From: Candidatus Marinacidobacterales bacterium
GTDB lineage: Bacteria; Acidobacteriota; Vicinamibacteria; Marinacidobacterales; DATDRI01
Assembly: GCA_965226495.1 (NCBI GenBank)
Contig: OZ245365.1
Span: 3,232,001-3,296,000 of the forward strand
Reading direction: 5' to 3'
DNA: 64,000 bases
The position numbers were made by a program, and so were the translations under genes. A model generated the notes under the pieces. The model was not told the origin of the DNA and searched no databases. It saw nothing but the letters and a program-made list of their open reading frames with translations. This document shows, piece by piece, positions 21,637-41,087 of the stretch; the stretch's first letter is position 1; each line of letters opens with the position of its first letter.

Positions 21637-21808
21637 TCCGGATCACACTTCCTGAAAATTCGATTTTCTTCCATAATAGATTATGTTAGGTTCACTGTAC
21701 GCTGTGACGGGAGTCGAAGACTCCGAGTGCGCCGTTCGCAGCTCCTACGAAGAACTGGTCTACCCCAGACGCGCCGCACTCGTGGTCGGACCGAAGCCCT
21801 TTTAAGTC

Positions 21809-22408: not shown

Positions 22409-22453
22409 AACTTCCCGCTGGACGTCGAGTCCTTACCTGCTACACTCCTCGCG

Positions 22454-22921: not shown

Positions 22922-22979
22922 TCCCTTGCCTCGCCTCCGGGGCCGCGTTACAATCCTCGCCGATTTGTCCCCTTCGAGA

Positions 22980-24353
22980 ATGTTCAGAATGGCTAGCAAA
23001 GAGCCGGGAAGCGCGAGCCTTCGCTTCTGTTACGCGTCCATCTTTTGGCTGATTGTGCCCGGCGTTTTCGGCTTGATCCTAGCCACTTTCTTGTATGCCC
23101 CGGCACTGGCCGATCACCTCCCGCTTTCCATCAAACCGTATTTGAGCTTCGGTCGCCTGAGACCGGCTCACGTGAACCTCGCGATCTTCGGTTGGCTCTC
23201 GCAGGCCTATTACGCCGGCATTCTCTTCATTCTCCCTCGCCTCCTTCGCACCGAGCTTTACAGCGAGCGCCTCGCCCACGTGAACTGGTGGCTTTGGAAT
23301 CTCATGGTCGTCGCCACCCTCATCACTCTTCCTATGGGACACACGCAAGGCCGCGAGTACGCGGAGATGATATGGCCGCTCGATCTGCTGTTCATTCTCA
23401 ACATCGTGCTGTTGGCGATCAACATCTGGGGAACCGTTGCACGTCGTCGCGAGCCCAAGATCTACGTGAGCGTCTGGAACTTCATGGCGGCAACGATGGT
23501 AATGGTCCCAATCTACGCGGTCGGCAACAAGATTTGGGATCCCTCCGGTGCGTACTACGGCATGAACGACAACATCGTGAACTACTTCTATGTTCACAAT
23601 CTCTTCAACGCCTGGTTCACGACCGCCGGTATCGGGCTGGCCTTGTACCTTCTACCGAAGCTCACGGGCAAGCCGCTCTACAGCCACCGGCTCGGCCTCT
23701 GGGGACTCTGGAGCGTCTGGACCGGACAACATCACCAACTCTACAGCCCGGCACCGGATTGGCTGGAGTACCTCACGATCGTCTTCAGCATCCTGGCAGC
23801 CGTGCCGACGACGGCGTTCATGGTCAACTTCTTCATGACCATGCGCACCCGCTGGCACGTCGCCGCTCAAGACGTCGCGCTCCGTTTCTTTGCAACCGGA
23901 GCGATCTTCTGGGGACTCACCTGCGTGCAAGGCATCTCCCACTCGTTCCGAACCTTTTCGATGGTCGTGCATTTTACAAACTGGGTCGTGGGACACTCGC
24001 ACCTCGCCTTTGTGGCGTCCTACAGTTTTTGGGCCTTCGCACTCATCTACCTGATCGTGCCAACGCTCACCGGCCGCAACATCTATAGCAAGAAACTGAT
24101 GGAGTGGCACTATTGGCTGACCACGCTAGGCATGTTGATCTTCATGATCTCGATGTGGGTGGCGGGGCTCATCCAAGGACAAAACTGGTCGTCCTATATG
24201 ATCCCGTTTCTGCAAACCGTGATATCGATGAAGCCTTATTTCGGGGCCCGCCTGATTGGGGGCGCGATCGCCGGCATCGGGATCGCTTGCTTCGCATGGA
24301 ATATCTGGCGAACGGCGCACAGCGACACCGCCGTCACAGAGGGTAGACAATGA
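22980..24353 (+). CDS. ccoN: cbb3-like (C-family) heme-copper oxidoreductase subunit I with divergent active site
   Basis: SFGRLRPAHVN, GREYAE, YVHN, GQHH and GHSH supply all six His ligands; about 12 TM helices. Confidence 0.85.
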   Translation: MFRMASKEPGSASLRFCYASIFWLIVPGVFGLILATFLYAPALADHLPLSIKPYLSFGRLRPAHVNLAIFGWLSQAYYAGILFILPRLLRTELYSERLAHVNWWLWNLMVVATLITLPMGHTQGREYAEMIWPLDLLFILNIVLLAINIWGTVARRREPKIYVSVWNFMAATMVMVPIYAVGNKIWDPSGAYYGMNDNIVNYFYVHNLFNAWFTTAGIGLALYLLPKLTGKPLYSHRLGLWGLWSVWTGQHHQLYSPAPDWLEYLTIVFSILAAVPTTAFMVNFFMTMRTRWHVAAQDVALRFFATGAIFWGLTCVQGISHSFRTFSMVVHFTNWVVGHSHLAFVASYSFWAFALIYLIVPTLTGRNIYSKKLMEWHYWLTTLGMLIFMISMWVAGLIQGQNWSSYMIPFLQTVISMKPYFGARLIGGAIAGIGIACFAWNIWRTAHSDTAVTEGRQ

Positions 24354-24835
24354 GACCTAACCTGGTCTACCTTGTCGGCGGCTCCCTGGTCAGCTTGTTG
24401 CTCGGGATTATCGTCACCATTATTATCCCTGCGCAGGAACCGATCGGGCCTTCGCAGCTGGCCAAGTCCTATTCCGAAAAGGAATTGAGGGGGCGTGATA
24501 TCTATTTACGTGAGGGGTGCCACTACTGCCATACCCAGCAGGTGCGCGAGCCCGAGTCGGATCGCGGGATGGTGCGCCAGCGCGGCGACATCGGGCCCGA
24601 ATCGGTGCCGGGAGACTTCTATTATCAGTCTCCGGTTTTCTGGGGCACTCTCCGCCAGGGCATGGACCTGGCCCATGTCGCCTCGCGGAAAGGGATCGGA
24701 GATAACGTGGGCTGGCACGAGCTTCACTTTAGAAACCCTCGAGCGGTGTCGCCGGGAACGGTCATGCCGTCCTACGACTATCTGTCCGCGGAAGAGATTC
24801 AGGCGCTCACCGCATATATGTTGACGCTGAGATAA
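24350..24835 (+). CDS. ccoO: cbb3-type oxidase monoheme subunit II
   Basis: GRDIYLREGCHYCHTQQVR, WGT.RQGMDL, PRAVSPGTVMPSY. Overlaps the ccoN stop (ATGA). Confidence 0.9.
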   Translation: MRPNLVYLVGGSLVSLLLGIIVTIIIPAQEPIGPSQLAKSYSEKELRGRDIYLREGCHYCHTQQVREPESDRGMVRQRGDIGPESVPGDFYYQSPVFWGTLRQGMDLAHVASRKGIGDNVGWHELHFRNPRAVSPGTVMPSYDYLSAEEIQALTAYMLTLR

Positions 24836-24839
24836 GTCT

Positions 24840-24992
24840 ATGGTCTTCCCCGCAACCTGGCTGGTGCTAGCGACAGTGGCTATCATCTTGGTGCTCTTCG
24901 GCCTCGGCTACTACTGGGCGCGCAGTAACGGGCAGTTGGACGACATCGAGGCGGCGAAGTACACCATGCTCGAAGACGACGAGTCTGAATGA
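24840..24992 (+). CDS. ccoS: cbb3-type oxidase assembly protein CcoS (50 aa, not in the ORF track)
   Basis: Hand translation MVFPATWLVLATVAIILVLFGLGYYWARSNGQLDDIEAAKYTMLEDDESE; WA..NGQ.DD.E motif. Confidence 0.8.
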   Translation: MVFPATWLVLATVAIILVLFGLGYYWARSNGQLDDIEAAKYTMLEDDESE

Positions 24993-25243
24993 TGAGCTCT
25001 GAAGGAGCACGGGAAGTGCCGCCGGGTCACGACGATTTCGGGGGTGAGATCCTGGTGGCCAACGGCAAACCGCCCCGCTGGGTCACGAAACTACCTTATG
25101 TCGCGATGGTCTGCGCACTCGGGTATTACGCGATGGTCGGGGCCGCCGACCCGGTCAACCTAGCGTTCGCGTCACTGTTCGTAATTTGGTTTATCTACAC
25201 TCCGATCGCCCAGAAGAAGGGCTGGTTCTTTATTCCGATGTGA
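24989..25243 (+). CDS. Small membrane protein resembling the CcoP N-terminus, with no heme c motif
   Basis: GHDDFGGEILVANGKPPRW resembles CcoP GHxWDGIxExxNPxPRW; two TM helices; translationally coupled to ccoS. Confidence 0.6.
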   Translation: MMSSEGAREVPPGHDDFGGEILVANGKPPRWVTKLPYVAMVCALGYYAMVGAADPVNLAFASLFVIWFIYTPIAQKKGWFFIPM

Positions 25244-25348
25244 CATGCCGAGGGGAGGTGTCATCGATCGACTAAGTTGAGCGACGTTCCTTAGTTTGAC
25301 CCATCACTTTTCACTTTCACATACCTATTGAAACTGGAGGGCAACAAA

Positions 25349-25783
25349 ATGGCGGACAGAGCCGAACAAGCAAACAAGTACATGGAAGATAAGATGTTTT
25401 TCACCCCCCGCATGTTCAAAGTAACCAACACGCTGGCGCCGGAAGTCGGGGAGCGTTTCGCCGATTTCTACGAGTCGGTGTGGGCCGACGGCAACCTGTC
25501 CCGCAAGATCAAAGAGCTGATGTTCGTCTCCATTGGCGTGGCCTATATGTCGCCGCGGTGCATCATCCACGTTCAGCCCGCCATCAAGGCCGGTGCGACG
25601 GACGGCGAGATCTTCGAGGCGGTGTCAGTCGGTATGCTGGCAGCCGGGTTCGTGCCTGGTGGACCAGGCATTCCCTACGCCTTCGAGTATGCCGCCAAGA
25701 CGTTGGACATTGCAGCCAAGATCCGCAAGGGCGAAGACTTCGAGTATCTCCCTGGCCCCAAGTTCGACAAGGGCGTCTACTAA
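25349..25783 (+). CDS. Carboxymuconolactone decarboxylase (CMD/AhpD-like) family protein
   Basis: DGNLSRKIKELMFVSIGV...CIIH...AIKAGATDGEIFEA; GGAGG RBS. Confidence 0.85.
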   Translation: MADRAEQANKYMEDKMFFTPRMFKVTNTLAPEVGERFADFYESVWADGNLSRKIKELMFVSIGVAYMSPRCIIHVQPAIKAGATDGEIFEAVSVGMLAAGFVPGGPGIPYAFEYAAKTLDIAAKIRKGEDFEYLPGPKFDKGVY

Positions 25784-25861
25784 GAACAACCGTCTCTGCG
25801 CAGACGGGGGTCGACAAACCTAGGGCTCCCGTCTGCCTTCTCTTCTAGGACAGAACAACAC

Positions 25862-26680: not shown

Positions 26681-26686
26681 AACAGC

Positions 26687-28488: not shown

Positions 28489-28822
28489 GACCCAAGAAGA
28501 GCTAGGCGTCTTCTTCCTTCTTCGCGCTGGCCCGGAGCACTTTTGGCACCAAGTTGCCACCAGAGCAGAGCGGACGCTGTCCCTCTCGAGATCGCCGATT
28601 TGAAAAGTCGAACGGCAGACTCCTATAATCCGCCGAACGGCCACGCGGGTATATTTGTATATCCAGACCCACCAGACGCGGCATATCCCGGGGCAGGAAA
28701 CAACGGATCATGCCCAACACGAATAGTCTGAGTTACATGAACGAAGACACCCACGCTGCGATATCCAATACCTGGACCGGCTTGGATGTGCTATCGAATT
28801 ATCCAGATCTAGATACTTACTG

Positions 28823-29354
28823 TTCGGCGGGCATTGCTTGATGTACAAGACACTCAGCTTTCAGTATGCCGGGGCGCTAGATTGGGAGTATGACGAGACT
28901 GGGGAGCCGGTAACTCCGGGCGGCAGGGCGCTCACGGAGAGGATTGCTGCCTCTTTGACGTGCGAGACGGTACGGTCCGCGGCGGTCGAACAACACGAGT
29001 ACTACGGATGGGGTTTTACCAGCGAACTCGGACGAGATTCCTTCTACAACGTGCTTAATGCGGTGGACCCAGACGTCTTCTTCACGGTCAAAATGGAATG
29101 GTATCTAGCGAAGAAAACACTGTTTCGCTCCCCAGAGATAGCTTTGAAGCGATATTGCCAGATTCTGCGCGATGCTGTTTCCTCTCTCGACGGAGTCAGC
29201 GAGGTGAAGTGGGAGGAACAACGCCGTTGATTTGCGGGAGCCGCCGAACAATGCGTTGGAGTCGGACGGCGCCGAGGCTTCTTGGGCGCGTGAGATACTG
29301 CCGCAGGGGGGCGGTGTCGGCGGCGCTCCAGCCGCGCCGCCACTCAACGCACTG
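28823..29354 (+). mobile_element. Integron gene cassette 1
   Basis: Starts at G|TTCGGCGG (28822), which is complementary to CCGCCGAAC at the start of the attC at 29241. One ORF lies in between. Confidence 0.75.
28838..29230 (+). CDS. Hypothetical protein (cassette gene)
   Basis: 130-aa ORF that fills cassette 1. Confidence 0.7.
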   Translation: MMYKTLSFQYAGALDWEYDETGEPVTPGGRALTERIAASLTCETVRSAAVEQHEYYGWGFTSELGRDSFYNVLNAVDPDVFFTVKMEWYLAKKTLFRSPEIALKRYCQILRDAVSSLDGVSEVKWEEQRR

Positions 29355-29360
29355 TTATAC
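29243..29360 (+). other. attC site 1
   Basis: R'' GCCGAAC, L'' GTTGGAG, L' CTCAAC (extrahelical G), R' GTTATAC. Confidence 0.8.
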
Positions 29361-29594
29361 AGGCGATTTCAACGGAACCATCAAAGCTTTGCTGAGAATC
29401 CCGCCGGGGCCCAGATAAGTGGCCGTCGAGCGAAAGGACGCTCGAGGTATTTCCTAGTGCACAATGGGCACCGATCGTGCCATCAGCGCGTTAACTCCAT
29501 GTCTCACGACGTGATACGACAGCCCGACTGATACACAATCAGTAGGTGTGCAGCGTCGAGCTCCCGTGAATGTCGCTTACCGAATCGGGCGGCC

Positions 29595-31120
29595 TTAATC
29601 CTGGCCTGTCGAGAACGACAGCAACTCCTCCGGTTTTCTGGGAACGCCTCCCTTGATCACCCACTCGATGGCTCGAGCGTTCCGGACGTCCTCTAGCGGA
29701 TTGGCGCTCAAGACGACTAGATCTGCTAGCTTACCCGGCTCGATGCTGCCAATTTCATTGTCCACTCCCAAGGCGATAGCTCCCCCGTAGGTTGCCGCCA
29801 CCAGGACCTCGGCCGGGCTCAGACCCGCCTCCTGGAGGAACTGCATTTCGAGATGCGAGCCGATGCCGACCGGACCTGCGTCGGATCCGAGAGCAACGGT
29901 GACACCTCGGGCCTGAGCCTCGCGCGTGTTCTCTTGCAGGTGCTCCCACAACGTGGCTAGGGCCGGAGGCAGTCCGGGGAATCGAGAGGTCGCGCCGGAC
30001 GCAGCGTTCGCTCTTTGCTCGTACCGCGCCAGCTCACTGTCGGAGAGTCTCCTTTTGAAGTTCTCATCCGATAGGATGCGTTTCGCGTAGGCTTGCTGGT
30101 CTCCATTAGCAAGAATCACCAGGTGCGTCGGTGTCCAGACGATGTTTCGCACGCGCATCTCTTCCCACGTCGGAGGAATCAGCAGCTTAACCGAGCGCGG
30201 GGAACCGTACGGAGATTTGACAGGAAAATTAAGACTTGACCGTCCGGGGAATCGAGTCGCGCCGGACCAGCGTTCGCTCTTTTCGTACCGCGCCAGCTCC
30301 ATGTTCTCATCAGGAGTTTCGCGCTTGCTGGCTCCGGAATCACCAAGAACACGCGCATCTCTTCCCAGAGTTTCTCGTCCACCTCCGAGTCCATTGTTCC
30401 ATGCATCAAGGCGTTGGCTCCGGCAAGAACGGCCTCTCGAGTGTCGGCGAGCTGCGTGACATGAACATAGACCCTCATGTCCAATGTTCTAGCTTCATCG
30501 ACCAGGGCGGAAAAGACCTCTGCTCGAAGCCGCGGCACCTTCTTCGAACCCATCCAGAGGACACCGTCGTCCTGAATGATCTTGATCTGCCGGAATCCCT
30601 GGTCCTTGCATTTCCTAACCATCCGTCGGGCAGCGTCGGCCGTGTGCGGTTTGAAGAGCTCCAGTCCCGGCATGACATTCTGCGGAAACCCGCCGCTGAA
30701 AAACGGGCTCATGTGAAGGCGGGGAGAGAGAGTCTTGGGCGATTGCGATCGCGCTTCCAGCTGGCGGGGATCGTCCGGGAGAGACCCGGGCATCAAGTGG
30801 ATGGTGGTGAATCCCATGGCCAAATACGTTTGAAGCGCCTCCTCGGAGCTGGAGTGCGTGTGGACATCCACAAATCCCGGGACGACCCACTTTTGCTTCC
30901 CATCGATGACCCGCGCGCCCTCCGGTATCGTAATGCTCCCCTCACTGCCGACGGCGAGCACGCGGTCGCCTTCGAGGACGATGACCGCATCAGCCTGCAG
31001 CACCCCCGTCTTCCCATCGATCAAGTTCGTGGGCGAGATGACCACTCTTCGCGCCTGGCCGATCGCCAGGATAGCGGAAGCATGCGCGAGGAATAACACA
31101 AGAGCAAGGACCCTTTTCAT
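29595..31120 (-). pseudogene. Secreted amidohydrolase, interrupted by a 200-bp insertion (30168..30367); inverted gene of cassette 2
   Basis: PGFVDVHTH, YVHVT, LMHG, GSDAG, GSIEPGKLADLVVL. Removing 200 bp fuses DEKLWEEMRV to RNIVWTP in frame (about 441 aa). Confidence 0.8.
30166..30241 (+). mobile_element. 76-bp copy of the right end of the IS256 element
   Basis: Identical to 34115..34190, including the terminal IR. Confidence 0.9.
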
Positions 31121-31290
31121 GCAGCACCTTCCTAGTTTCATGCGGTGGCGCCGACCGCCCGGCCGACTCCGACCACCGCTCGTTCTAGCCTGGAATCTAG
31201 TCGTTCGACAGGTGGGATTCAAACGGCTTGGGTGTGCGGGATTGCGCCACCTCAGGGGAAGGCAAAGCTGGCAATGGTGAAGCCAGAGCT

Positions 31291-31396
31291 GTATAACAGC
31301 CGCTGGAGGCGACGGCCGACTTTTCCTGATTCAACGACCGAATCAGCTTTACGCTATCTTCAACGAAGTCGGCCGCAGCTCAGCTTTTCGTTAGGC
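31291..31396 (+). other. attC site 2
   Basis: R'' GTATAAC (exact complement of GTTATAC at 29354), L'' GCTGGAG, L' CTCAGC, inner stem CGGCCGACTT/AAGTCGGCCG, R' GTTAGGC. Confidence 0.8.
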
Positions 31397-31405
31397 AGTC
31401 GAAGA

Positions 31406-31816
31406 ATGAATGAGGGTCGCACGGTAGCTTGGGTTGGAACCGCGATCGTCGTCGTGCACGGGCTAGTCAACGCAGCACACGCGACGGCTCATTCGGAACT
31501 AGGCGTCGAAATGTCGAAGTGGCAGGAAACCTTTATTCTGGTCGTCATTGGTCTGAGTCCCCTTGCAGCCGCGGTGCTTCTTTGGACGGCCCACGCACGG
31601 TTAGGCGCGGTCATCCTTGCCGGCGCGATGGCGGCGGCATTCGTGTTCGGAGTCTACTATCACTACGTGGCTGTTTCGCCGGACCATGTGGGGCATTTGC
31701 CGCCGGGGGATGCACGTGGCTTGTTTCGAGCAAGTGCTTTGTTTGTTGCTGTTACTCAAGCTCTGGGCACTGTTGTGGGCCTATGGGGTATCCGAACGCT
31801 TCGAGGTGCATCATAG
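31406..31816 (+). CDS. His-rich four-TM membrane protein (cassette 3 gene)
   Basis: ATG 10 bp after attC2; VHGLVNAAHATAH, YYHY..SPDHVGH. Confidence 0.7.
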   Translation: MNEGRTVAWVGTAIVVVHGLVNAAHATAHSELGVEMSKWQETFILVVIGLSPLAAAVLLWTAHARLGAVILAGAMAAAFVFGVYYHYVAVSPDHVGHLPPGDARGLFRASALFVAVTQALGTVVGLWGIRTLRGAS

Positions 31817-31861
31817 ATGCTTGTCGTGGCCGAGGAGGTCTGTAGTGTCCTGAGTCTTTGG

Positions 31862-32788
31862 TTACACACTGAGTCCTGTTTTCTGTCTAAGGCGTTCATA
31901 CGGGGTCTGGCCGTCTAAGCCTCCATGAGGTCGATGGTAGTTATAGTACTTCTCCCACTCGCTCAGTTTTGCATTGAATAGGTGAATGTCGTCGCTGACC
32001 CCGTCCTTGTCTAGAAGCTGGTAAAACTCTTGGTCGTCGGTGCGATGAGAGCGTTCGACCTTGCCGTTCAATCGAGGGGTCCGGGGCGTGATGTATACGT
32101 GGGATATGTCTTTGTCCTGAAGGTGCCAGTGAAACCTCGACTGGAATTCAGCACCGTTGTCGGTTTGTATGACGTGAATTCTGAAGGGTAATCGGTGGAT
32201 GACTTCATCGATGAACTGAATGGCCGTCTTTTGACTGCAGGCATCGAATATCTTCAAGACCCGTATCCTTGTACAGTCGTCTACGGCCGTGAACTGATAG
32301 AACCTTCTCCGGGTGCCTGGTATTCTCTCCAGGAACTTTACATCTACCTGCAGCCTATGACCAGGCTGGCGTCTCTCGTACCGCTTCCAGCGCTTCTTGT
32401 GGGCTCGATGTTTTTGACTTGCGGGCAATCGACTCAGGCCATTGCGCTCCAGGACTCGGTGAACCGTGGAAGCGGCGATTTTTATCTGATGATATCGATG
32501 CAGGTAGGAAGCGATTCTCGCCGGACCAAAGTGGTAGTTTTGCCGCAAGTAGAGAATCTTGCTGACCGTCTGTTTGGGAGTCTCACGGGGGCAATTCTTG
32601 GGCCTCCTTGGTCTATCACAGAGGCTGGCCTCGCCATGGGCCTCGTACCGAGCCAGCCACTTGTAGAAAGTCTTCCGCGAGATCCCGAAATATCTACAAG
32701 TTCTTGAGACATTATGAGTTGTTTCGGCTGCGTGACGAATGATCTTCATTCGCCAATTCACTAGCCGCTGTCGTTCCGTCTTCTTCAT
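31862..32788 (-). CDS. IS481-family transposase
   Basis: N-terminal HTH; DDE motifs QVDVK, QTDNGAEF, NGKVERSH; YNYHRPH. Confidence 0.9.
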   Translation of the reverse strand: MKKTERQRLVNWRMKIIRHAAETTHNVSRTCRYFGISRKTFYKWLARYEAHGEASLCDRPRRPKNCPRETPKQTVSKILYLRQNYHFGPARIASYLHRYHQIKIAASTVHRVLERNGLSRLPASQKHRAHKKRWKRYERRQPGHRLQVDVKFLERIPGTRRRFYQFTAVDDCTRIRVLKIFDACSQKTAIQFIDEVIHRLPFRIHVIQTDNGAEFQSRFHWHLQDKDISHVYITPRTPRLNGKVERSHRTDDQEFYQLLDKDGVSDDIHLFNAKLSEWEKYYNYHRPHGGLDGQTPYERLRQKTGLSV

Positions 32789-32791
32789 GTT

Positions 32792-34190
32792 GGTGATGTC
32801 TTAAGATTCCTGTCAAAGAAAAACGATGTATGGTTCCCCAAGCTCAAACCCGTCCCCGTCATGGGACAGAAAAGGAGAACCATACATCATGGGAAAGGTA
32901 CTACCGAGTCAGCGATTGCTCAAGCAGTTCGAGGAACAACTGGTATTTGGGGAGATGAATCTCTCGGAGATCGTCCGGTCGGGAGCTCAGATGATGCTTC
33001 AATATGCGTTGGAGCGCGAGGTGACGGAGGCGTTGGGTCGAAACTACTATGAGAACGCTCCGGCAACGACGAAGGAGAAGGGACGACGCAACGGGTATGA
33101 GTCGCATCGGGTCCTCACGGGCGAGGGAGCGGTGACGGTGCAAGTGCCGCGGGTACGAGAAACAGAGAAGGTGTTTCAGTCAAAGATTCTCGACGCCTAC
33201 GTGAGCCGGACCGAGAAACTCGATGAACTGATCGCGCGGATGTACGTCCACGGGATGTCGACGCGTGACATTGAGGCGACGTTCGCGGACGTGCTGAGCG
33301 GCACGGGTGTCTCGAAGTCGGTGGTGAGCCGGGTCACACGGTGTCTGTCGGAGGATTTCGAGGCGTTTCGAAAACGGGATCTCTCGAACGAGAAGCTGTT
33401 GTATCTCGAGCTCGACGGCACGTACCTGCGCTACCACCAAGGAGCGGAGAGGAAAGAGCCCATCCTCGTTGCGACCGGCTATCGCGCTGATGGGACGCGA
33501 GTTCTTCTTCATATCGGTGTCGGCAACCGAGAATCCTACGAGAACTGGAAGGGGTTCTTGCAGGAGATGGTGGCCCGAGGAATGAGGGAGCCGTTGCTCA
33601 TCGTGACGGACGGGAATCCTGGAGTGCTCAAAGCGATCGCAGAGGTCTTCCCTCGAAGCCTCAAGCAACGTTGCCAGAAGCACCGCCTCGAGAACATCCT
33701 GGGCAAGGCTCCGAAGGAAGTGCGCGACGAACTCAAGGCGGCCATCCTTGAGTCGTTCCATGCGAACAGCTACGAGCAAGGGCTGAAGAAGGGTCGGGAG
33801 GTGATCGCTCGGTACCGTCAACGATTCCCGAGCGCGATGAAGTGCATGGAAGAGACCCTCGAAGCGTGTCTTCAGGCGCTACGCCTTCCTGCGGCGCATC
33901 ACAAAAGGCTTCGCACGTCGAATCTACTTGAGCGCACGTTCGGAGAGCACAAACGTCGCACAAAGGTCATTCCTCACTTCTTCACCGAGGAGGCCGCGAT
34001 GAAACTCTCGTTCGCTGTGCTCTTGGCCGTCGCAAACAAATGGCGCGGCGTGAGGATGGATGTCTTCGCCGCTAGGAAAGTCGAGGAGCTTCGCAACGAG
34101 CTTCTCCCGCAAGGCACGTCGGAGGAATCAGCAGCTTAACCGAGCGCGGGGAACCGTACGGAGATTTGACAGGAAAATTAAGACTTGACC
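32792..34190 (+). mobile_element. IS256-family element with 8-bp target duplication
   Basis: IRL GGTGATGTCTTAAGATTCCTGTCAAA, IRR TTTGACAGGAAAATTAAGACTTGACC; DR TTCATGTT at 32784..32791 and 34191..34198. Confidence 0.92.
32889..34139 (+). CDS. IS256-family transposase
   Basis: RNGY, GMSTRDI, LDG, TDG..G, QRCQKH, TSNLLER. ATG at 32889 after an AGGAG RBS. Confidence 0.92.
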   Translation: MGKVLPSQRLLKQFEEQLVFGEMNLSEIVRSGAQMMLQYALEREVTEALGRNYYENAPATTKEKGRRNGYESHRVLTGEGAVTVQVPRVRETEKVFQSKILDAYVSRTEKLDELIARMYVHGMSTRDIEATFADVLSGTGVSKSVVSRVTRCLSEDFEAFRKRDLSNEKLLYLELDGTYLRYHQGAERKEPILVATGYRADGTRVLLHIGVGNRESYENWKGFLQEMVARGMREPLLIVTDGNPGVLKAIAEVFPRSLKQRCQKHRLENILGKAPKEVRDELKAAILESFHANSYEQGLKKGREVIARYRQRFPSAMKCMEETLEACLQALRLPAAHHKRLRTSNLLERTFGEHKRRTKVIPHFFTEEAAMKLSFAVLLAVANKWRGVRMDVFAARKVEELRNELLPQGTSEESAA

Positions 34191-34268
34191 TTCATGTTGC
34201 ACTACCTCCCTGCAGCACTTAAAAGAAGACTAGTGTGTCACCTCTGTCCTGGGGTTTTACAGAGCGCC

Positions 34269-34372
34269 GTCTAACGAGCAGTTGCAGCAGACGAAGCGCG
34301 AGTATGATGCAGGGGCTGTCCAAGCTCTTACGTCATCGAGTCGCGCTTCGCGGCTGAACGGCCCTGCTATAC
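34269..34372 (+). other. attC site 3 (degenerate R')
   Basis: R'' GTCTAAC, L'' GTTGCAG, L' CTGAAC, inner stem CGAAGCGCGA/TCGCGCTTCG. R' reads GCTATAC instead of GTT. Confidence 0.7.
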
Positions 34373-35485
34373 CGCCCGACAGCAAGGGGTCGTGGGGGAT
34401 GCCAAAAGAGAGCCACCGCAATCTCCTTTGTCTGCCGTCGAATTCCCGCGCCCAACGTACCAGCCATCGCTAGCCCCTGGATCACGTGATCCAAGATTGG
34501 AAACCGCTCGCACGCTATAAGGCATTCCAGCATCTCGGGAAATCATGGCGCCGCCCACTCGCTGTGGGGTCGAAGAGATAGACGGCTTGCTCTTCGAACG
34601 TCCCTTCGAACTCGGCAGGGGCAACGGCTTTTCGATAACTCCTAATGGCCCCTCCCAAGTCAGTCGGTTGGGAGCCCGACCCTTGACCTTCAATCGCCCC
34701 TCGGTGATCGCGGCGTGACACACCGCGCAGACCGTGTGGAGATTCCAAGTCTCGTCGGGACCACCCCGAGCCCGCGGGATGATGTGGTTCGCACTCAAAG
34801 CAGTTCGATTGCTGCACCCAGGCCGGGTGCACTTCCAGCCGGCTCGCTCGGCGACCTTTCGCACGTAGCCGCCATCGGTCTCGGGTCCGTCTCCAAACGC
34901 CGGCGTTATTGCATACCCGCAAAGCGCCTCAGCGCACATGAGATCGAATACCTCGATGTCGCTCAAGGTCTTTCCCGCCAAACGCTCGAGCGCCTCTCTC
35001 GCCTGCTCCCACGCCTCGACTCGATCACCTTCGAGCATGAAGAAGAGAGATTTCCTCGTCGTCGGTGGCTGCTTTCTTTTGACTTCCTGTTCGAGCTGGC
35101 GATTGCTCATGTTCTTGCAACGGTCGAGCCACTTGGCTTCGGTCTTGGGTGTCGCGACTTTGACGACCTCTCGCGCCTTGGTCCAAGGGATGTCTCCTTT
35201 CTGGAAGGCCGCCTTTAATCGCGGGAGTTCTTCGAAACGTTCTGCCATGTTTAGCAGCGACGGCGTCTTGCGATCCTCGAAACCCAGTCGTTCGCGAGCG
35301 TAATCGACGGTCGAGGCGAAACCGTATTTCAGGTAGAGTTGCCGGTTCTCGACCTCCTGGAGGTAGAAGCACAAAACGGACTCCACCCGGCGGTGTACTC
35401 GAGCGGCGGAAACCAGGCGTCGATCGACCTCGCTCGGGGGAAGACCTTTGGTCATTTCAAGAACGACTTCGGCAGGCACGGACAT
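34367..35485 (-). CDS. DUF222-like plus HNH endonuclease
   Basis: YGFASTVDYARERLG, GDIPWTKARE; RAGWKCTRPGC...NHIIPRARGGPDETWNLHTVCAVCH. Confidence 0.8.
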   Translation of the reverse strand: MSVPAEVVLEMTKGLPPSEVDRRLVSAARVHRRVESVLCFYLQEVENRQLYLKYGFASTVDYARERLGFEDRKTPSLLNMAERFEELPRLKAAFQKGDIPWTKAREVVKVATPKTEAKWLDRCKNMSNRQLEQEVKRKQPPTTRKSLFFMLEGDRVEAWEQAREALERLAGKTLSDIEVFDLMCAEALCGYAITPAFGDGPETDGGYVRKVAERAGWKCTRPGCSNRTALSANHIIPRARGGPDETWNLHTVCAVCHAAITEGRLKVKGRAPNRLTWEGPLGVIEKPLPLPSSKGRSKSKPSISSTPQRVGGAMISRDAGMPYSVRAVSNLGSRDPGASDGWYVGRGNSTADKGDCGGSLLASPTTPCCRAV

Positions 35486-35536
35486 GGCACTTACTCCTTT
35501 TAAAATGAGTGGGTTGCTATGAAAACCCGATACTCG

Positions 35537-35565
35537 AATATAGGAGTATATTAGGTGAATGTCAA
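35537..35565 (-). promoter_or_regulatory. Near-consensus sigma70 promoter of the HNH gene
   Basis: Minus strand TTGACA-17 bp-TATATT, followed by an AAGGAG RBS. Confidence 0.75.
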
Positions 35566-35882
35566 GTCATGTCATACGCACAATCTAACTAATTAGAAAC
35601 AAAGGACTTAGACAGAAAAACCAAAGGGTCGAAGGACCTGGCCGGTGGCTCAACTCATTGATAAAACAGTACTTACGCGCCCGGGCGCGGGCAAAAGACG
35701 TCTCTTCCCTTTCGAGGCTGCCCCCGTCGCCGACCCCGGTCCGTTCCGTCGTCCTCGTCTAGCGTCTGACGCCCGGCCTCGTTTCGGCAACCGACGCCCG
35801 GCAAACTTCCCTCGTGGCAAGCTTAGCAGGCATCCCTTTTTGGCGACTTACTGGCTCAATCCAGTAAAATAGTCAGTCGACC

Positions 35883-36785
35883 ATGAAGAACCTAGTTCCC
35901 CTGCCGTATCGCCGGGTCTCGGTCCAGCCCTACGAACGCGAGATGACGGAAAAGCCCATCCGCGCGCACCTGATGGGCCGGGAGACGTATCGGCGGACGG
36001 ACTTCATCGTCCTGAGGAAGGGCCCAGACAGTAAGGAGACGGCGGTCGTCGAGGTCACGGCCCCCGATAGGGAGAGTCTCTTCAGCCCCATCGATTCGGT
36101 CCGGATCGTGGCCCTGCCCGAAACCTGTGTCTTCGTCGAAGCCCCGGAGACCGATCCGGCCAACCCCTCCTCCCTGGCAGCCAAGGCGCACGAGCTCGGG
36201 ATCGAGGGCGAGCAAACGCTGGTGGTGCGCGGCAAGTACGAGCACGTCGGCTTCATTCACCACCCCGATCCCATGGTCATCCGTGTCGTAGAAGTTTCTC
36301 CGCCGGAGCCGCCCAAGCTCTTCGACCTCGCCCAACGCGTGCTCAGCTATGCGGAGCTTCCCCCAATACGGTTGGAGCTCACCCGCATCGACCTGAACGA
36401 GCTCGCCGAAGGCCACTCCCCTTCCGCCTTTCTGGTACCTTGCCGCTCCGGAGGACTGGATGGGCTCAAGGCACCGGTGTACTTTCTGGACGAGCGTCCG
36501 GCACGGCTCGATTGGACGATGATCGGGTGCGAGCGCAGTCTACAGTTCCATCGTCACTACTACGGCGACGAGCCGCCCCGCATAGAGCTCTGCCCGCGCC
36601 AATTGGCCGGCGAGAACGACGCTCCAACGCTACTCAAGTGTTGCCTCCTCGAGTTCGATTCCGAGCTCGACGAAAATGTTGCGATAGCACCCTGGGGCGC
36701 TGATCTGGCGATGGTGGAGAAGGCCATTCGTCAACTCGTGGCGGTCGCGGAGCGCGCACCCGCCGAAGCTACCAAAGCTACGTGA
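35883..36785 (+). CDS. Cys-rich hypothetical protein heading the CoM-biosynthesis-like operon (xcbA position)
   Basis: 300 aa; PCRSGG, IGCERS, LCPR, KCC. Co-oriented 18 bp before comA. The XcbA link is positional only. Confidence 0.7.
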   Translation: MKNLVPLPYRRVSVQPYEREMTEKPIRAHLMGRETYRRTDFIVLRKGPDSKETAVVEVTAPDRESLFSPIDSVRIVALPETCVFVEAPETDPANPSSLAAKAHELGIEGEQTLVVRGKYEHVGFIHHPDPMVIRVVEVSPPEPPKLFDLAQRVLSYAELPPIRLELTRIDLNELAEGHSPSAFLVPCRSGGLDGLKAPVYFLDERPARLDWTMIGCERSLQFHRHYYGDEPPRIELCPRQLAGENDAPTLLKCCLLEFDSELDENVAIAPWGADLAMVEKAIRQLVAVAERAPAEATKAT

Positions 36786-36803
36786 CATAGGAGAAAAGCA
36801 TTC

Positions 36804-37640
36804 ATGACCAAAGCTTGGACTTCCATCTTTCCTGAGCTGGCGGCCCGCTCGCGGAAACCACGAACTCGCGGCGTGACGATGCTGCTGGACAAGTGCCAGG
36901 GCCCCGCGGCCACCGAAGATCTCCTGGCCATGTCGGGGGACTACATCGACTTTTGGAAGATGTCTTACGGAACGTCGGCTCTCCTCGACGACGGTTTCCT
37001 ACGTCGCAAGATTGAAACGATCGGCCAGCACGACATCATCGTCCACCCTGGCGGCACATTGGCGGAATACGGGATCATGCGAGGTCTCACCCGAGAGTAC
37101 GTCCGACACTGCCAGGCTCTCGGTTTCACCGGTGTCGAGATCTCGGATGGCACGATCGAAATGTCGCCCAGTGTGCGCCGGGATGCCATTCGGTACGCCC
37201 GGGATCTCGGTTTAACCGTCATCACCGAGGTCGGTAAGAAAGACCCCAACGAGCAACCTGCGGTCGAGCTGCTAGCGGAACAAGCGCTAGGCGACTTCGA
37301 TGCGGGCGCCTCCTGGGTCATCGTCGACGCGCGTGAGTCGGGTCGAGGAGTGGGGGTGTTCGACGCGGATGGCACCGTCCGCGAGGAAGCTGTCGATGCT
37401 ATGGTCGATATCTTGGAAGGCCACCTCGATAAGATGATCTGGGAGACGCCGCTCAAGAAACAGCAGGAGTACTTCATCATCCGCTTCGGCCCGCATGTCG
37501 GACTCGGCAACATCCAACCGCGCGACGTCCTGGCACTTGAATCGATGCGCACCGGTATCCGCTTCGAGACTTTCCACGCCTTTGCCGAGAAGCTCCTCGA
37601 AGAGGCCCAGCAGGCTCGAGACGCGGCGGACGACGGATAA
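36804..37640 (+). CDS. comA: Phosphosulfolactate synthase (ComA/XcbB)
   Basis: KPRTRGVTMLLDK, PGGTLAE, VEISDG, TEVGKKD, ARESG, GLGNI. Confidence 0.9.
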   Translation: MTKAWTSIFPELAARSRKPRTRGVTMLLDKCQGPAATEDLLAMSGDYIDFWKMSYGTSALLDDGFLRRKIETIGQHDIIVHPGGTLAEYGIMRGLTREYVRHCQALGFTGVEISDGTIEMSPSVRRDAIRYARDLGLTVITEVGKKDPNEQPAVELLAEQALGDFDAGASWVIVDARESGRGVGVFDADGTVREEAVDAMVDILEGHLDKMIWETPLKKQQEYFIIRFGPHVGLGNIQPRDVLALESMRTGIRFETFHAFAEKLLEEAQQARDAADDG

Positions 37641-37651
37641 CGAGAGAACCC

Positions 37652-39247
37652 ATGGTTTTTGGCGACCCCCCCTCCGACGCCCTCATCCGAACCGCCTATG
37701 CGCGCGAGGCGGGCGACACGGCTATCCTTTATAAGGGGATGAGCCTGGCCGATATCGCCCACGTCGTCGGCTTGGTGGAGTCCAAGATCATTCCCCGCCA
37801 GGCGGGAGGCGAGCTCTTGTGGGCATTGCTAGAAATCCATCCTTCACCCCCGATGGATTTTGCCGTCGATCCCGGCCGCGGTGATTCCTACTCGAACCGC
37901 GAGGCTTACTTGAGAATGCTCACTCCCTCGGCCGGATGGCTGTCGGCAGGCCGGGCGCGGCGCGAGTCCACGACGACCGGTTATCGAATCGCCGTCCGAG
38001 AGCGGTTGCTGAGCTTGGCCGGAGCACTCGGCGACTGCGCCGCGGCGGCACTCGAGCAATGTGACGCGCATCGAACGACTCTCTTCCCCGACTACACGTA
38101 CCTTCAGCCGGCTCAACCCACCGTGTTCGCGCATTACCTCCTGACGTTCGTCTACCCCATGCTCCGTGATCTAGAGCGTCTCGGTGGCGCCTTCGCGCGT
38201 ACCAATGTCTCGCCGGCCGGCTGCGGCAGCGTGAACGGAAGCCGGCTACCCTTGGACCGCGAGGCGCTTTCCCAAATGCTCGGCTTCGACCGCCCCATCC
38301 CGCACGCACGCGACGCCATGTGGCAGGCGGACGGCCCGATCGAAAACGCGGCACTCATCACCGCGGTGCTCATCAACCTCGACCGCCTGGCCGAAGACCT
38401 GCAGATCTTTTCGACATCCGAGTTCGGGCTCGTCGAGTTGGCCGACCGCCATGCGCGCCCGAGCGTGATCATGCCGCAGAAGAAAAACCCGTACTCGCTC
38501 GCCTATCTCCGAGGGCTTGCCGGGGTTTCCATCGGCACCTTGGCTGCGATGGCTGCGGTCGCCAAGACGCCTTCCGGACAGATCGACAATCGCATGTTCG
38601 CTTATGGCGACGTACCGCGGGCGCTCGATCAAGCGACGGACGCAACACGGTTGATGGCCGACGTGCTCCGAGGGCTCACTGTGAAGACGGATGTCGCTGA
38701 AAATCGAGCCGCACAAGACTTCCTCGGTGCGACCGACTTGGCGGAAGTCATCATGATCGAGTGCGAGATCGACTACAAAACCGCGCACCGTATCGTAGCC
38801 CGAGCCATTCGGGAGGCCCTCGAATCAAACGAAGTAGGCGAATCGGCGCTAGCCATCGAACGACTGGAAGCCGCCGCCGAAGCCACCATCGGAAAAAAAC
38901 TCGGCCTCTCGAAGAAAAGAATTCGCGAGGTGCTCGACCCGGCGAGTATCGTCGCCACGCGCACCGGTATCGGAGGCGCCGCGAGCGAATCGGTGAGCGA
39001 GATGATCGCCGCATGCAGAAATGGCCTGAACGAAAATGAAGCGTGGCGCCTGGAGACGGGAAGGAAACTCGTGGAGGCCGAAACACGATTGGGAATGAAG
39101 GCCACACTACTGAAGATCGTTCCCGCCGAGCCCGCTGAGAAAGACGGCTCGCCTGAATCGCAGCAAGCCGAAACCAGTTCTTGGGAAAAGGAGTTCGAAG
39201 ATCTCCCCAAGATGCCTCCCGGGCGCCGCCGATTTCCAGCCGAATGA
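37652..39247 (+). CDS. Argininosuccinate-lyase-like protein (XcbC-like)
   Basis: AGRARRE, DYTYLQPAQP, SVIMPQKKNP; non-canonical catalytic residues. Confidence 0.8.
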   Translation: MVFGDPPSDALIRTAYAREAGDTAILYKGMSLADIAHVVGLVESKIIPRQAGGELLWALLEIHPSPPMDFAVDPGRGDSYSNREAYLRMLTPSAGWLSAGRARRESTTTGYRIAVRERLLSLAGALGDCAAAALEQCDAHRTTLFPDYTYLQPAQPTVFAHYLLTFVYPMLRDLERLGGAFARTNVSPAGCGSVNGSRLPLDREALSQMLGFDRPIPHARDAMWQADGPIENAALITAVLINLDRLAEDLQIFSTSEFGLVELADRHARPSVIMPQKKNPYSLAYLRGLAGVSIGTLAAMAAVAKTPSGQIDNRMFAYGDVPRALDQATDATRLMADVLRGLTVKTDVAENRAAQDFLGATDLAEVIMIECEIDYKTAHRIVARAIREALESNEVGESALAIERLEAAAEATIGKKLGLSKKRIREVLDPASIVATRTGIGGAASESVSEMIAACRNGLNENEAWRLETGRKLVEAETRLGMKATLLKIVPAEPAEKDGSPESQQAETSSWEKEFEDLPKMPPGRRRFPAE

Positions 39248-39271
39248 GCGCTCGAGTCAAATCTTAATTTT

Positions 39272-40663
39272 ATGCCATCTCACATCTCCGATTCGCTGAT
39301 CTACCGGAGCTCATGGGGCACCGAGGAAACGCGTGCGATATTCGACGACGAGCCCCGAACCCGCGCTTGGCTCGAGATCCTGGCCGTGCTGGCGGAAAGC
39401 CAAGCGGAAGTAGGTCTCATCCCTGCCGGTGATGCCAAGAAAGTAGCGCGCGCTTGCCGAGAGATGACGCTCGACACCGAGTTCTTCGAGGAGGTCCGGA
39501 AGGGTTTCGAGGAGACCAATCACACCACGCTCGGCCTCATTCGCGCCGTCCAACGCCGTTGCCCCGACGGCTCGGGCGAATGGGTCTACTACGGTGCCAC
39601 CGTACAAGACGTCGTCGACACCTGGACCATGATGACGGTCGCGCAAGTATGGTCCATCGCGTTCCGGGAGCTGAAAGCGCTCGAAGAGAATCTCCTTAGG
39701 CTCGCGGAGACTCACAAAGATACGGTAATGCCCGGTCGTACGCACGGCCAGCCCGGACTCCCCATCACCTTTGGTTTCAAGGCGGCAGTCTGGGCGAGCG
39801 AGACCCGACGCCACATCGCGCGCCTCAAAGACATTAGAAGTCGCATCGGAGTGGGTCAGCTCGTCGGCGGTGTAGGCAGCATGTCCTCCTTGGGTCCGCA
39901 GGCTTTCACGTTGCAAGAGAAGTTCTGTTCTCGCCTAGGGCTTCGACCGTCGGATATCTCATGGACCACCGCGCGCGACGTCTTTGTAGAATGGTTCCAG
40001 CTGCTAACCCTCATCTCCGGTACCGCAGACAAAATGGGGCATGAGATCTACAACCTGCAGCGTCCCGAGATCGGTGAGGTGACCGAAGGTTTCGTACCGG
40101 GAACGGTGGGGAGCATCACGATGCCGCACAAGCGCAACCCCGAAATCGCGGAGCACCTGGGCACGCTGGCGAGAGTAATTCGTCACAACACGGCGCTCCT
40201 GTCAGAATCTCAAGTTCACGACCACGAGCGGGACGGGCGAGCTTGGAAGTCGGAGTGGGCGGTTCTGGCCGAGACATCGATGGCGGCGGCAAAGCTTCTC
40301 GAGTTGACCAACACGATGATCCAACATCTCGACGTCCACGCCGACCGAGCGCTCGCCAATCTGGAAGCGAGCAAGGGCTTCGTGCTGTCGGAAGCCGTCA
40401 TGCTGAAGCTAGCGGAGCACGTTGGCAAGCAAAGCGCTCACACATTAATGTACGAGACCGCGATGAAGGCGCATGAGGCAGATCGTCCGCTAAAGGACGC
40501 CGTCTTAGAAAATGATGCCATCCGCAAGCACCTGTCCGCGGAGACCATCGAGGCTCTTTTCGACTACCGGCGACATACAGGCTTCTGTAGCGAGCAAGTC
40601 GATCGGGTGCTGGCGCGAGCCAAGAAGGAGAGGGAGAGGGAGAGGGAGAGCGACTCGAAATGA
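39272..40663 (+). CDS. Adenylosuccinate-lyase-like protein (XcbD-like)
   Basis: YGATVQD, GRTHGQ..PITFGFK, GSITMPHKRNPE, HDHERDG. Confidence 0.8.
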   Translation: MPSHISDSLIYRSSWGTEETRAIFDDEPRTRAWLEILAVLAESQAEVGLIPAGDAKKVARACREMTLDTEFFEEVRKGFEETNHTTLGLIRAVQRRCPDGSGEWVYYGATVQDVVDTWTMMTVAQVWSIAFRELKALEENLLRLAETHKDTVMPGRTHGQPGLPITFGFKAAVWASETRRHIARLKDIRSRIGVGQLVGGVGSMSSLGPQAFTLQEKFCSRLGLRPSDISWTTARDVFVEWFQLLTLISGTADKMGHEIYNLQRPEIGEVTEGFVPGTVGSITMPHKRNPEIAEHLGTLARVIRHNTALLSESQVHDHERDGRAWKSEWAVLAETSMAAAKLLELTNTMIQHLDVHADRALANLEASKGFVLSEAVMLKLAEHVGKQSAHTLMYETAMKAHEADRPLKDAVLENDAIRKHLSAETIEALFDYRRHTGFCSEQVDRVLARAKKERERERESDSK

Positions 40664-41073
40664 AACCCTGTTTCTACATCGGGTTGGCACTGATTCTATT
40701 CACGTTGGGAGGGTGTGGCAACGGAGAAGGCACCAAGAGTGGCGAAACCAACATCAAACCCCTCCCCACCGGCAACCCGACAGACGGAGAAAGCGTCTTC
40801 TTGGGCACGTGTATCAAATGCCACGGCAAAGATGCGACCGGGATCGAAGGTTCAGGAACCAATCTGACCATCAGCGAGTTCGTCAAAGCTCATACTGATG
40901 CCGAGTTGGTGGAGTACATCAAGACCGGACGCGCGATGAACGACGCGCTCAACACGACGGGGATCGCGATGCCCCCGTACGGCGCCAATCCAATGCTAAC
41001 CGATCAGGATCTCGCCGACGTCGTGGCTTACTTACGAGCCGTTCAGCGTGCACCCGATTCACCGACGAACTGA
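40660..41073 (+). CDS. Lipoprotein monoheme cytochrome c
   Basis: Lipobox LGGC, CIKCH, distal MPP. ATGA overlap with the xcbD-like gene. Confidence 0.85.
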   Translation: MKPCFYIGLALILFTLGGCGNGEGTKSGETNIKPLPTGNPTDGESVFLGTCIKCHGKDATGIEGSGTNLTISEFVKAHTDAELVEYIKTGRAMNDALNTTGIAMPPYGANPMLTDQDLADVVAYLRAVQRAPDSPTN

Positions 41074-41087
41074 GGAAAAACATACCC

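Follow-up and report, generated by a model that had tools for sequence, protein, structure and literature searches.

Can a cbb3-like haem-copper oxidoreductase (HCO) that has lost a key tyrosine of its active site still be an enzyme of oxygen respiration? In these enzymes the Tyr of helix VII is the source of the fourth electron and of a proton when O2 is split, and the question is raised by a gene that lies in 64,000 nucleotides of genomic DNA from a Candidatus Marinacidobacterales bacterium (contig OZ245365.1; hereafter "the window") and encodes a CcoN-like subunit I. The first-pass annotation, made from the sequence of the window, had reported a cbb3-like subunit I without the helix VII Tyr and with Asn four residues after the CuB-ligating His of helix VI (position His+4; motif HNLFN), and both features are indeed present in the frame of the open reading frame (ORF). 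Four observations are new here: replacement of the proton channel, monophyly of the Tyr-less proteins within the C-family, their membership of a four-gene module, and co-inheritance of that module with xcbA-E, the genes for bacterial coenzyme M (CoM) biosynthesis. Taken on sequence, the window enzyme is probably not an ordinary oxygen-respiring enzyme.

A cbb3-like subunit I with a shortened helix VII

The longest ORF begins with a TTG codon at 22926 and ends at 24353, and the start is probably the ATG at 22989, which gives the 454-residue length of database entry P0001 (100% identical to the window protein). The protein matches Pfam COX1 (E = 1.5e-82), and a HMMER search of solved structures ranks cbb3 CcoN chains first (9g6b_A and 3mk7_A; E ~1e-71), NorB being reached at E = 1e-4 only. 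Identity to cbb3 CcoN (for example, that of P. stutzeri, 3mk7) is 31%, and the score against the ccoN equivalog model TIGR00780 is 297.8 bits, roughly half the cut-off of 583.15. The twelve-helix core and six His that mark the PF00115 superfamily are both there: H61, H203, H248, H249, H336 and H338 are all kept, and the fold matches A-, B- and C-family enzymes as well as cNOR.

In the HMMER alignments to 3mk7_A and 9g6b_A, YVHNLFNA of the window protein is aligned to YGHNAVGF of CcoN, and a five-residue gap in the window protein falls exactly over LITVY of CcoN helix VII; MAFFT places the same gap. The cross-linked Tyr (which we take to be Y251 of cbb3 CcoN, in a numbering counted along the printed 3mk7 alignment) thus has no counterpart in the window protein. 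The first-pass alignment, made by eye, had described this segment as about five residues shorter, and since the HMMER gap falls over LITVY that description was right. Its further statement that Ser occupies the Tyr position is true if the alignment is anchored on the His-His pair; in the HMMER and MAFFT alignments the Tyr falls in the gap. An AlphaFold2 model (149-row alignment; predicted local distance difference test score, pLDDT, 94.8; predicted template modelling score, pTM, 0.94) has helix VII helical at 233-241 and then unwound at 242-247, where pLDDT is lower (~79). A Foldseek search with the model returns cbb3 CcoN first (3mk7 and 9g6b; template modelling score, TM, 0.92-0.93) and cNOR NorB next (TM 0.82-0.84).

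A further explanation to be considered is an assembly error or a decaying pseudogene. Decay does occur among relatives: three of the seven copies in the Acidobacteriota class sample (see below) are truncated (G102, G105 and G126). In the window, however, the frame is intact, and the family to which the protein belongs spans 58-100% identity and three phyla with invariant ligands. The same DNA is also present in sequencing runs from several studies: when words were sampled from 22400-26700, a fraction of 0.91 or more was present in each of 18 runs (one such run may be the window's own source) from seven studies, and this interval is covered by a contig of 30.9 kb from one run (X3) and by 26 contigs from another (X17), with no indel in 23575-23770. 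An artefact is refuted for this copy, and we give the explanation as a whole a negligible chance. The sole indel in the contigs of these two runs lies in the rhodanese gene, where 12 nt are missing relative to the window at 26142: an in-frame strain length variant.

Conservation and position within the C-family

Conservation was assessed on the best 120 of 771 proteins with E <= 1e-10; these are 58-100% identical to the window protein and are the basis of all counts out of 120. Five of the six ligands (H203, H248, H249, H336 and H338) are His in every sequence, and H61 is His in 117, the other three being N-terminal fragments; the first-pass claim that all six His remain extends in this way to the homologues. 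N207 (His+4) and F206 are invariant. The segment from S232 to H248 is 17 residues long and contains no Tyr in any of the 120, so that a deletion unique to this contig, which had been raised as an alternative, is refuted. Q247, which precedes the His-His pair, is Gln in 117 and Glu in three; Y199 (His-4) is Tyr in 118 and Phe in two; His-2 is Phe in nine. The 23 Tyr-bearing C-family representatives with six His differ at the corresponding positions: His+4 is Gly in all 23, and His-4 is Trp in 16.

These representatives come from a search of a set reduced to 50%-identity representatives, of which the best 150 were returned; 103 of at least 430 amino acids (P0001 included) were kept and 48 shorter ones dropped. 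Among the 103, the deletion and HN.FN occur together only in P0001 and P0121 (60% identity); the next neighbour, P0123 (46%), has canonical FYIWTGAHH and HNVLG. A quick IQ-TREE phylogeny of 51 rows was built from 41 six-His sequences plus ten further clade members; it omits the 62 representatives lacking a ligand, and is midpoint-rooted, without a cNOR outgroup or bootstrap. The Tyr-less proteins are monophyletic (Shimodaira-Hasegawa-like approximate likelihood ratio test, SH-aLRT, 100; stem 0.54) and stand within an unresolved set of Tyr-bearing C-family lineages. The Tyr-less clade is a discrete branch inside the Tyr-bearing C-family. The "new HCO family" offered by the first-pass annotation is for this reason too strong: the clade is nested in the C-family and forms no separate family-level branch.

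A second pair of Tyr-less C-family proteins, P0191 and P0209 (Bacillota, one of them from a Brevibacillus sp.), is placed elsewhere in the tree: it too has Asn at His+4 (HNAVN and HNEVN), has no deletion and keeps the channel residues. P0271 (Bacillota) is a further member of this independent Tyr-less C-family lineage. In many long CcoN-like representatives (600-1000 amino acids; for example, P0161, P0167, P0169, P0192 and P0268) at least one CuB or haem His is missing; these are degenerate or re-purposed CcoN homologues. Members of the clade, where named in public databases, are "cbb3-type cytochrome c oxidase subunit I" or "hypothetical protein", and no description of the clade was found in literature searches on Tyr-less C-family enzymes or on cbb3 enzymes of Chloroflexi, in a coverage that leaves out most subscription journals.

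Replacement of the proton channel

A feature beyond those seen in the first-pass annotation concerns the channel through which protons reach the active site. The residues T215, Y223, S240, Y251, Y317 and N333 (P. stutzeri numbering, counted on the 3mk7 alignment) are those we take to form the K-analogue channel of CcoN. They were compared between 96 clade rows and the 23 Tyr-bearing six-His representatives, and the counts were repeated on the best 120 homologues. Y223, Tyr in 23 of 23 representatives, is Leu in 84, Phe in 17 and Tyr in 19 members of the clade; S240 (Ser in 21 of 23) is Ala in 78, Gly in 41 and Ser in one; Y317 (Tyr in 22 of 23) is Trp in 118 and Tyr in two; N333 (Asn or Gln in 21 of 23) is Ser in 118 of 120. 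With these four of six positions replaced and Y251 deleted, T215 alone is kept in both sets. Judged by these residues, the cytoplasmic proton-input channel of cbb3 is largely swapped in the clade for side chains that do not hydrogen-bond. The basal subclade represented by P0121 retains two of the residues (Y308 and N324), which suggests the order of events: loss of the helix VII Tyr would have come first, and decay of the channel afterwards.

A conserved four-gene module

Subunit I is followed by three small genes (Table 1). The first encodes a short CcoO-like cytochrome c that matches Pfam FixO (5.2e-29), scores 90.7 bits against TIGR00781 (below the cut-off of 200) and covers only residues ~35-148 of cbb3 CcoO; a match to NorC was not found at E <= 0.01. 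The second encodes a hydrophobic protein of 84 amino acids, with no Pfam or NCBIfam match, which is a candidate third subunit or assembly factor. The third encodes an AhpD-like protein. No gene for CcoP or CcoQ is adjacent to subunit I and CcoO; a separate cytochrome c of 137 amino acids is encoded 16 kb downstream.

Related loci number 23. They come from Anaerolineales and other Chloroflexota, from Acidobacteriota ("Marinacidobacterales" and Vicinamibacteria, which at 87-95% identity are the kin of the window) and, in one case, from Gemmatimonadota. The CcoO gene is directly 3' of subunit I in all 22 loci with an intact copy. The 84-aa gene follows in 18 of the 22 (tblastn; 43-86% identity), the four loci without it ending 46-177 bases after CcoO or inside CcoO; the AhpD-like gene follows in 17, and the other five end at most 177 bases from CcoO, inside CcoO, or (L012) 58 bases past the 84-aa gene. 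The Tyr-less CcoN, the short CcoO, the 84-aa membrane protein and the AhpD-like protein are thus a conserved module, present in 17-22 of 22 loci across three phyla.

Beyond the module lie genes of thiol and sulfur chemistry. A block of rhodanese, MetE-type and OsmC genes downstream is syntenic in three Acidobacteriota loci (L003, L004 and L005) and in one from Anaerolineae (L015). In Anaerolineales a TusA-DsrE fusion stands immediately upstream of the module in three loci (L011, L014 and L023), and DsrE_2, with or without TusA, is found near it in L014 and L024. The MetE-like neighbour was considered as an epoxyalkane:CoM transferase and the idea was set aside: the names found for it are the generic "methionine synthase II family", and its NCBIfam methionine synthase matches are below cut-off.

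Co-inheritance with coenzyme M biosynthesis

Further downstream in the window is a cluster corresponding to the bacterial CoM pathway described in PMC9457059. XcbA (443 bits; cut-off 150), XcbB as ComA (297; 280) and XcbD (650; 600) exceed their NCBIfam cut-offs; XcbC is just under (565; 575), and XcbE is below (400; 450), yet that model is its best match. A spacer of ~7.4 kb, carrying transposase and integrase genes among others, separates the module from xcbA; this mobile or foreign DNA has probably been inserted there. In three relatives (L004, L005 and L015) xcbA comes directly after OsmC, within ~6-95 bases, and in three others (L011, L014 and L024) after the CMD gene region. In G008 and G021 the distance is 11-12 kb within one contig, and genes for MtaA-like methyltransferases and a RACo-type activator come before xcbA. 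In two Anaerolineales loci (L010 and L023) the set that sits between module and xcbA encodes a RACo-type corrinoid activator, two methyltransferases of the MtaA/CmuA family (methylcobamide:CoM-type), a TrmB regulator, a PF13769 protein and additional CMD paralogues. This set hints at methyl transfer to CoM in bacteria.

XcbA exceeds its cut-off in 18 of 22 host genomes, and the association was counted in two wider samples. In the class sample (251 genomes from the Acidobacteriota class of the window) XcbA occurs in five (G000, G180, G060, G078 and G102), all of which have the Tyr-less gene, intact in four (87-100% identity) and truncated in G102; two further genomes have oxidase remnants only and no XcbA. 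In the order sample (201 Anaerolineales-type genomes, the order of G008) ten genomes have both, one the oxidase only (G018), one XcbA only (G395) and 189 neither. XcbA carriers therefore also carry the Tyr-less gene in five of five cases (one truncated) and ten of 11, respectively. The oxidase module is co-inherited with xcbA-E in two phyla. Because the sampled genomes include relatives, which are not independent cases, and because a single island carries the oxidase and xcb genes alike, the counts show co-inheritance and not necessarily joint function.

Decay of the island has left its own record. In G105 (L025) a deletion fuses residue 191 of subunit I to residue 380 of XcbD, the 5' end being inverted elsewhere; in G126 (L029) residue 264 of subunit I abuts residue 77 of XcbB, and xcbC and xcbD are split. 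These two cases point the same way as the co-inheritance counts. In G102 (L028) a DDE transposase cuts subunit I at residue 341, with xcbA-D kept and xcbC in two overlapping pieces.

Comparison with known haem-copper families

With cbb3 enzymes the clade shares nesting in the C-family, the fold (TM 0.93), the six His, a translationally coupled mono-haem partner of CcoO type, and two Glu (E123 and E126) at what is presumably the haem-bridging Ca site. It differs in the residues described above – where C-family CcoN has the cross-linked Tyr six residues before the His-His pair, the clade has a gap or Ser, with Gly replaced by Asn at His+4 and Trp by Tyr at His-4 – and in a CcoO that lacks the C-terminal third, in having no adjacent gene for CcoP or CcoQ, and in a score far below the ccoN equivalog cut-off.

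Several Tyr-less HCO families are listed by Murali et al. 2024 (PMC11214002): eNOR, with Gln where the Tyr would stand; bNOR and sNOR, with Asn there; nNOR, with Glu; gNOR; NOD; and "N2O red" (N2O, nitrous oxide). The first five go back to the B-family and NOD to qNOR; for N2O red the wording is "closely related to cNOR". In the same text (section 7) bNOR is described as an experimentally shown nitric oxide (NO) reductase, and it is argued that NO reduction needs no Tyr. At the active site there is a parallel with bNOR (qCuANOR of Bacillus azotoformans) and sNOR, which likewise have no Tyr and have Asn at His+4 (N-245/N-243 in Dataset S1 of PMC11214002). According to that source, however, bNOR and sNOR are B-family-derived, have a cupredoxin (CuA-type) subunit II and keep the conserved proton channel; the clade is C-family-derived, has a cytochrome c subunit and has lost the C-family channel.

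With cNOR (NorBC) the clade has in common a relation to the C-family, a c-type subunit with one haem, and the absence both of the Tyr and of a cytoplasmic proton channel (for cNOR, PMC11214002); the cNOR fold is the second-best match to our model. The differences are the weak NorB similarity, a CcoO-like partner without a NorC match, and the absence of nir or nor linkage. The N2O red family is also Tyr-less, belongs to the C-family/cNOR side and occurs in Vicinamibacteria and Gemmatimonadota among others. In Dataset S6 most rows of the N2Ored block belong to Bacteroidota and some to Planctomycetota, Gemmatimonadota, Woeseiales and Vicinamibacteria UBA823; the block holds no Anaerolineales rows, the first of which stands far below it. 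N2O red is described as near cNOR and is dominated by Bacteroidota; the clade is mostly from Anaerolineales and closest to Tyr-bearing CcoN. Given these taxa and the weak NorB similarity, membership of the N2O red family is unlikely. Six clade accessions looked up in the available supplements of PMC11214002 were not found there, and the binning used in that study would probably have assigned the clade to "C".

Proposed function and alternatives

What, then, does the enzyme do? The first-pass conclusion that it is not a normal cbb3 O2 reductase is borne out by the missing helix VII Tyr, the ccoN score and the loss of most K-channel residues. As a possible but tentative answer we favor a non-pumping, cytochrome c-fed reductase that performs two-electron chemistry on a small oxidant, most likely the reduction of NO to N2O. 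The ancestor would have been a cbb3-type O2 reductase, and its descendant, with haem and either copper or iron at the active site, would have given up that activity: the two haems and the metal site with its three His would have been retained, with Asn at His+4 and Gln beside the His-His pair put in place. Electrons would pass from a c-type cytochrome to haem c of the short CcoO, on to haem b and then to the haem b3/metal centre, where a small uncharged oxidant would be reduced, most probably 2 NO to N2O. Protons would not use the cytoplasmic channel of the C-family, and turnover would for this reason be non-electrogenic, as it is in cNOR. Here we infer the substrate, the identity of the metal and the sidedness of proton uptake; the anatomy of the protein, its conservation, its place in the tree and the gene linkage are observed. 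The working unit would be the four-gene module, and because the module is co-inherited with CoM genes, a role protective of, or accessory to, a thiol/sulfur island would be more likely than one in denitrification.

By analogy, the His-x3-Asn site, shared with bNOR, sNOR and the second C-family lineage, appears to favor NO. The NO reductase raised in the first-pass annotation draws all of its support from this likeness, and none comes from the genomic context. In the organism's own genome, a single contig of 6.34 Mb with a completeness of 94.8%, there are two PF00115 genes, one A-family-like and the Tyr-less gene; no NirK in it exceeded its cut-off and no match to NirS was found; nor was there a match to the NosZ propeller (PF18764), a weak negative since the search was silent in control genomes as well. 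NirK exceeds its cut-off in just three of 22 host genomes, and in the flanks of eight loci a Pfam scan of 96 of 132 ORFs found no nir, nor or nos genes (the other 36 are overlaps with module genes already identified by tblastn). The enzyme itself also offers points on this side of the scale: cNOR has at His+4 a metal-binding Glu, the fourth FeB ligand, where the clade has Asn throughout; the Tyr at His-4 could in principle be redox-active; and channel residues persist in the subclade of P0121. It is because the context is silent on nitrogen oxides that our confidence in the proposal goes no higher than tentative.

Two side observations may be added. One host locus (L027; G008:C79) has a pair of nirK-like genes, and between them lie genes for a P-type ATPase, a DsbD_2 protein and two divergent subunits I of HCO type; these subunits were considered as a dedicated NO reductase and discarded, both being His-x3-Tyr (B-like) and one lacking the His-His pair, and they say nothing either way. 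In the window, in the range ~28-32 kb from the oxidase gene, are a 401-aa protein with a cytochrome P460 domain (52541-53746, minus strand) and a truncated, bacterial-like globin (56191-56727, minus strand). Both families are linked to hydroxylamine or NO chemistry.

If oxygen is still the substrate, the enzyme might be a low-rate, non-pumping scavenger that reduces O2 to water with four electrons taken from haem c, haem b, haem b3 and the metal. Such a scavenger would guard the oxygen-sensitive enzymes of the island (XcbA, an Fe-S protein, and corrinoid methyltransferases with RACo), much as fixNOQP serves nitrogenase. All cofactor ligands are kept; cNOR, also Tyr-less, can slowly and non-electrogenically reduce O2 to water; the module is linked to xcbA-E and, in L010 and L023, to MtaA-like methyltransferases and a RACo-type activator; and all 22 hosts have an A-family-type oxidase and so must meet oxygen. 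We nonetheless think a scavenger rather unlikely. That an invariant Asn at His+4 and loss of the Tyr should have come together, twice independently in the C-family, suggests that a new site was selected for and not simply tolerated. The cross-linked Tyr is moreover treated as indispensable to O2 reductases in the HCO literature (PMC11214002). A more conventional version of the same idea is an ordinary cbb3 oxidase in which Tyr199 (His-4) or Tyr201 has assumed the role of the helix VII Tyr. The change from Trp to Tyr at His-4 would fit, and the catalytic Tyr is known to have moved between helices within the superfamily (PMC11214002), making this a third "migration". But Phe at His-4 in two and at His-2 in nine of the 120 means that neither hydroxyl is invariant, the proton channel that feeds the Tyr has been dismantled, and the ccoN score is about half the cut-off: we regard it as quite improbable.

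The oxidant could instead be tied to thiol/sulfur chemistry – N2O, H2O2, an organic peroxide or an oxidised sulfur gas – with CoM metabolism as the partner, an explanation that is unlikely on balance. It would account for the tight co-occurrence with xcbA in the 251- and 201-genome samples, the AhpD-like, OsmC, rhodanese, TusA-DsrE and DsrE_2 neighbours, the cytochrome c gene inside the xcb operon, and the three relatives in which deletions remove or cut oxidase and xcb genes jointly. The linkage may, however, reflect hitch-hiking on one mobile island sampled in non-independent kin genomes, and G102 keeps xcbA-D although a transposase cuts its oxidase gene. We know of no HCO with sulfur compounds or peroxides as its main substrate, and the buried active site of HCOs is expected to admit small apolar molecules only.

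Other genes and features of the window

Upstream of subunit I are genes for a PilZ-domain and a DUF1232 protein, possibly co-transcribed with the oxidase genes; their synteny is shared only by the closest relative (L003) and, rearranged, by L025. Scans for promoters, terminators and FNR boxes gave counts near chance, except for a perfect 14-bp palindrome with CRP/FNR-like half-sites (GTGATCCGGATCAC, 21633-21646), which lies at the end of a Ser/Thr kinase gene, 160 bp upstream of PilZ. Two large Ser/Thr kinases are encoded in the window (18961-21636 and 3962-6997): one is fused to TolB-like beta-propeller repeats (recognized by eye), the other to an FGE-sulfatase domain. Contigs from two metatranscriptome runs of one study are confined to 25043-25375 and 25431-25790, in the genes for the 84-aa and AhpD-like proteins, and DNA carry-over is possible for them; none in these runs covers the oxidase gene.

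Table 1. Positions in the window of the oxidase module, its active-site motifs, the CoM cluster and nearby genes.
Feature	Position	Strand	Basis or remark
PilZ-domain protein	21809-22408	+	Pfam
DUF1232 protein	22454-22921	+	Pfam
CcoN-like HCO subunit I, Tyr-less clade, 454 aa	22989..24353	+	Pfam COX1, PDB, Foldseek
Helix VI motif NYFYVHNLFNAW	23580..23615	+	CuB His H203; N207 (His+4), F206 (His+3), Y199 (His-4)
Shortened helix VII YSHRLGLWGLWSVWTGQHHQLY	23679..23744	+	Five-residue deletion over cross-link Tyr; Gln before two CuB His
Short CcoO-like mono-haem cytochrome c, 161 aa, CHYCH	24350..24835	+	Start overlaps subunit I stop (ATGA)
84-aa hydrophobic protein	24989..25243	+	tblastn; two membrane helices read by eye
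AhpD-like/CMD-family protein, single Cys (SPRCIIH)	25328..25783	+	Pfam CMD 3.8e-9; last of four-gene module
Two-domain rhodanese	25862-26680	+	Pfam, NCBIfam
MetE-type Zn alkyltransferase-family protein	26770-27942	+	Pfam, NCBIfam
OsmC-like protein	27961-28488	+	Pfam, NCBIfam
Spacer, oxidase module to xcbA, ~7.4 kb	28489..35882	.	Pfam: transposase, integrase, HNH, amidohydrolase
Amidohydrolase, two overlapping ORFs	29595-30302 and 30179-31222	-	Spacer; possibly frameshifted
IS481-like integrase	31862-32788	-	Spacer
Mutator-family transposase	32826-34139	+	Spacer
HNH protein	34367-35485	-	Spacer
Bacterial CoM cluster: xcbA, xcbB (ComA), xcbC, xcbD, cytochrome c, xcbE	35883..42083	+	NCBIfam
137-aa mono-haem cytochrome c between xcbD and xcbE	40660-41073	+	In CoM cluster

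Significance

In metagenome studies, annotation of cbb3 genes in Anaerolineae is read as high-affinity oxygen respiration (for example in PMC11748557, cited for the practice and not as a record of the clade). A C-family match occurs in 13 genomes of the order sample, and 11 of these carry the Tyr-less form: if this enzyme does not respire oxygen, inferences of cbb3-based respiration are wrong for these lineages. The clade is also a natural experiment, in which a C-family scaffold appears to have lost first its Tyr and then its channel, and to have arrived by convergence at the His-x3-Asn site that bNOR and sNOR also have; it bears as such on the conversion of O2 reductases into NO reductases. 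A bolder generalization, doubtful for the present, is that the clade is a widespread and unrecognised cbb3 branch, re-tooled to a non-pumping reductase bound to bacterial CoM metabolism with a new substrate or protective role, and that the His-x3-Asn site has arisen twice independently in the C-family, as in the B-family.

A complete xcbA-E cluster is present in an Acidobacteriota-type genome, and the same genes are found in metagenome-assembled genomes of Anaerolineales. The near-exclusive linkage to xcbA-E shows that Acidobacteriota and Chloroflexota have the bacterial CoM pathway, which was solved only recently; it also connects the pathway with a redox enzyme of the membrane, and raises the question of what CoM is used for in these lineages.

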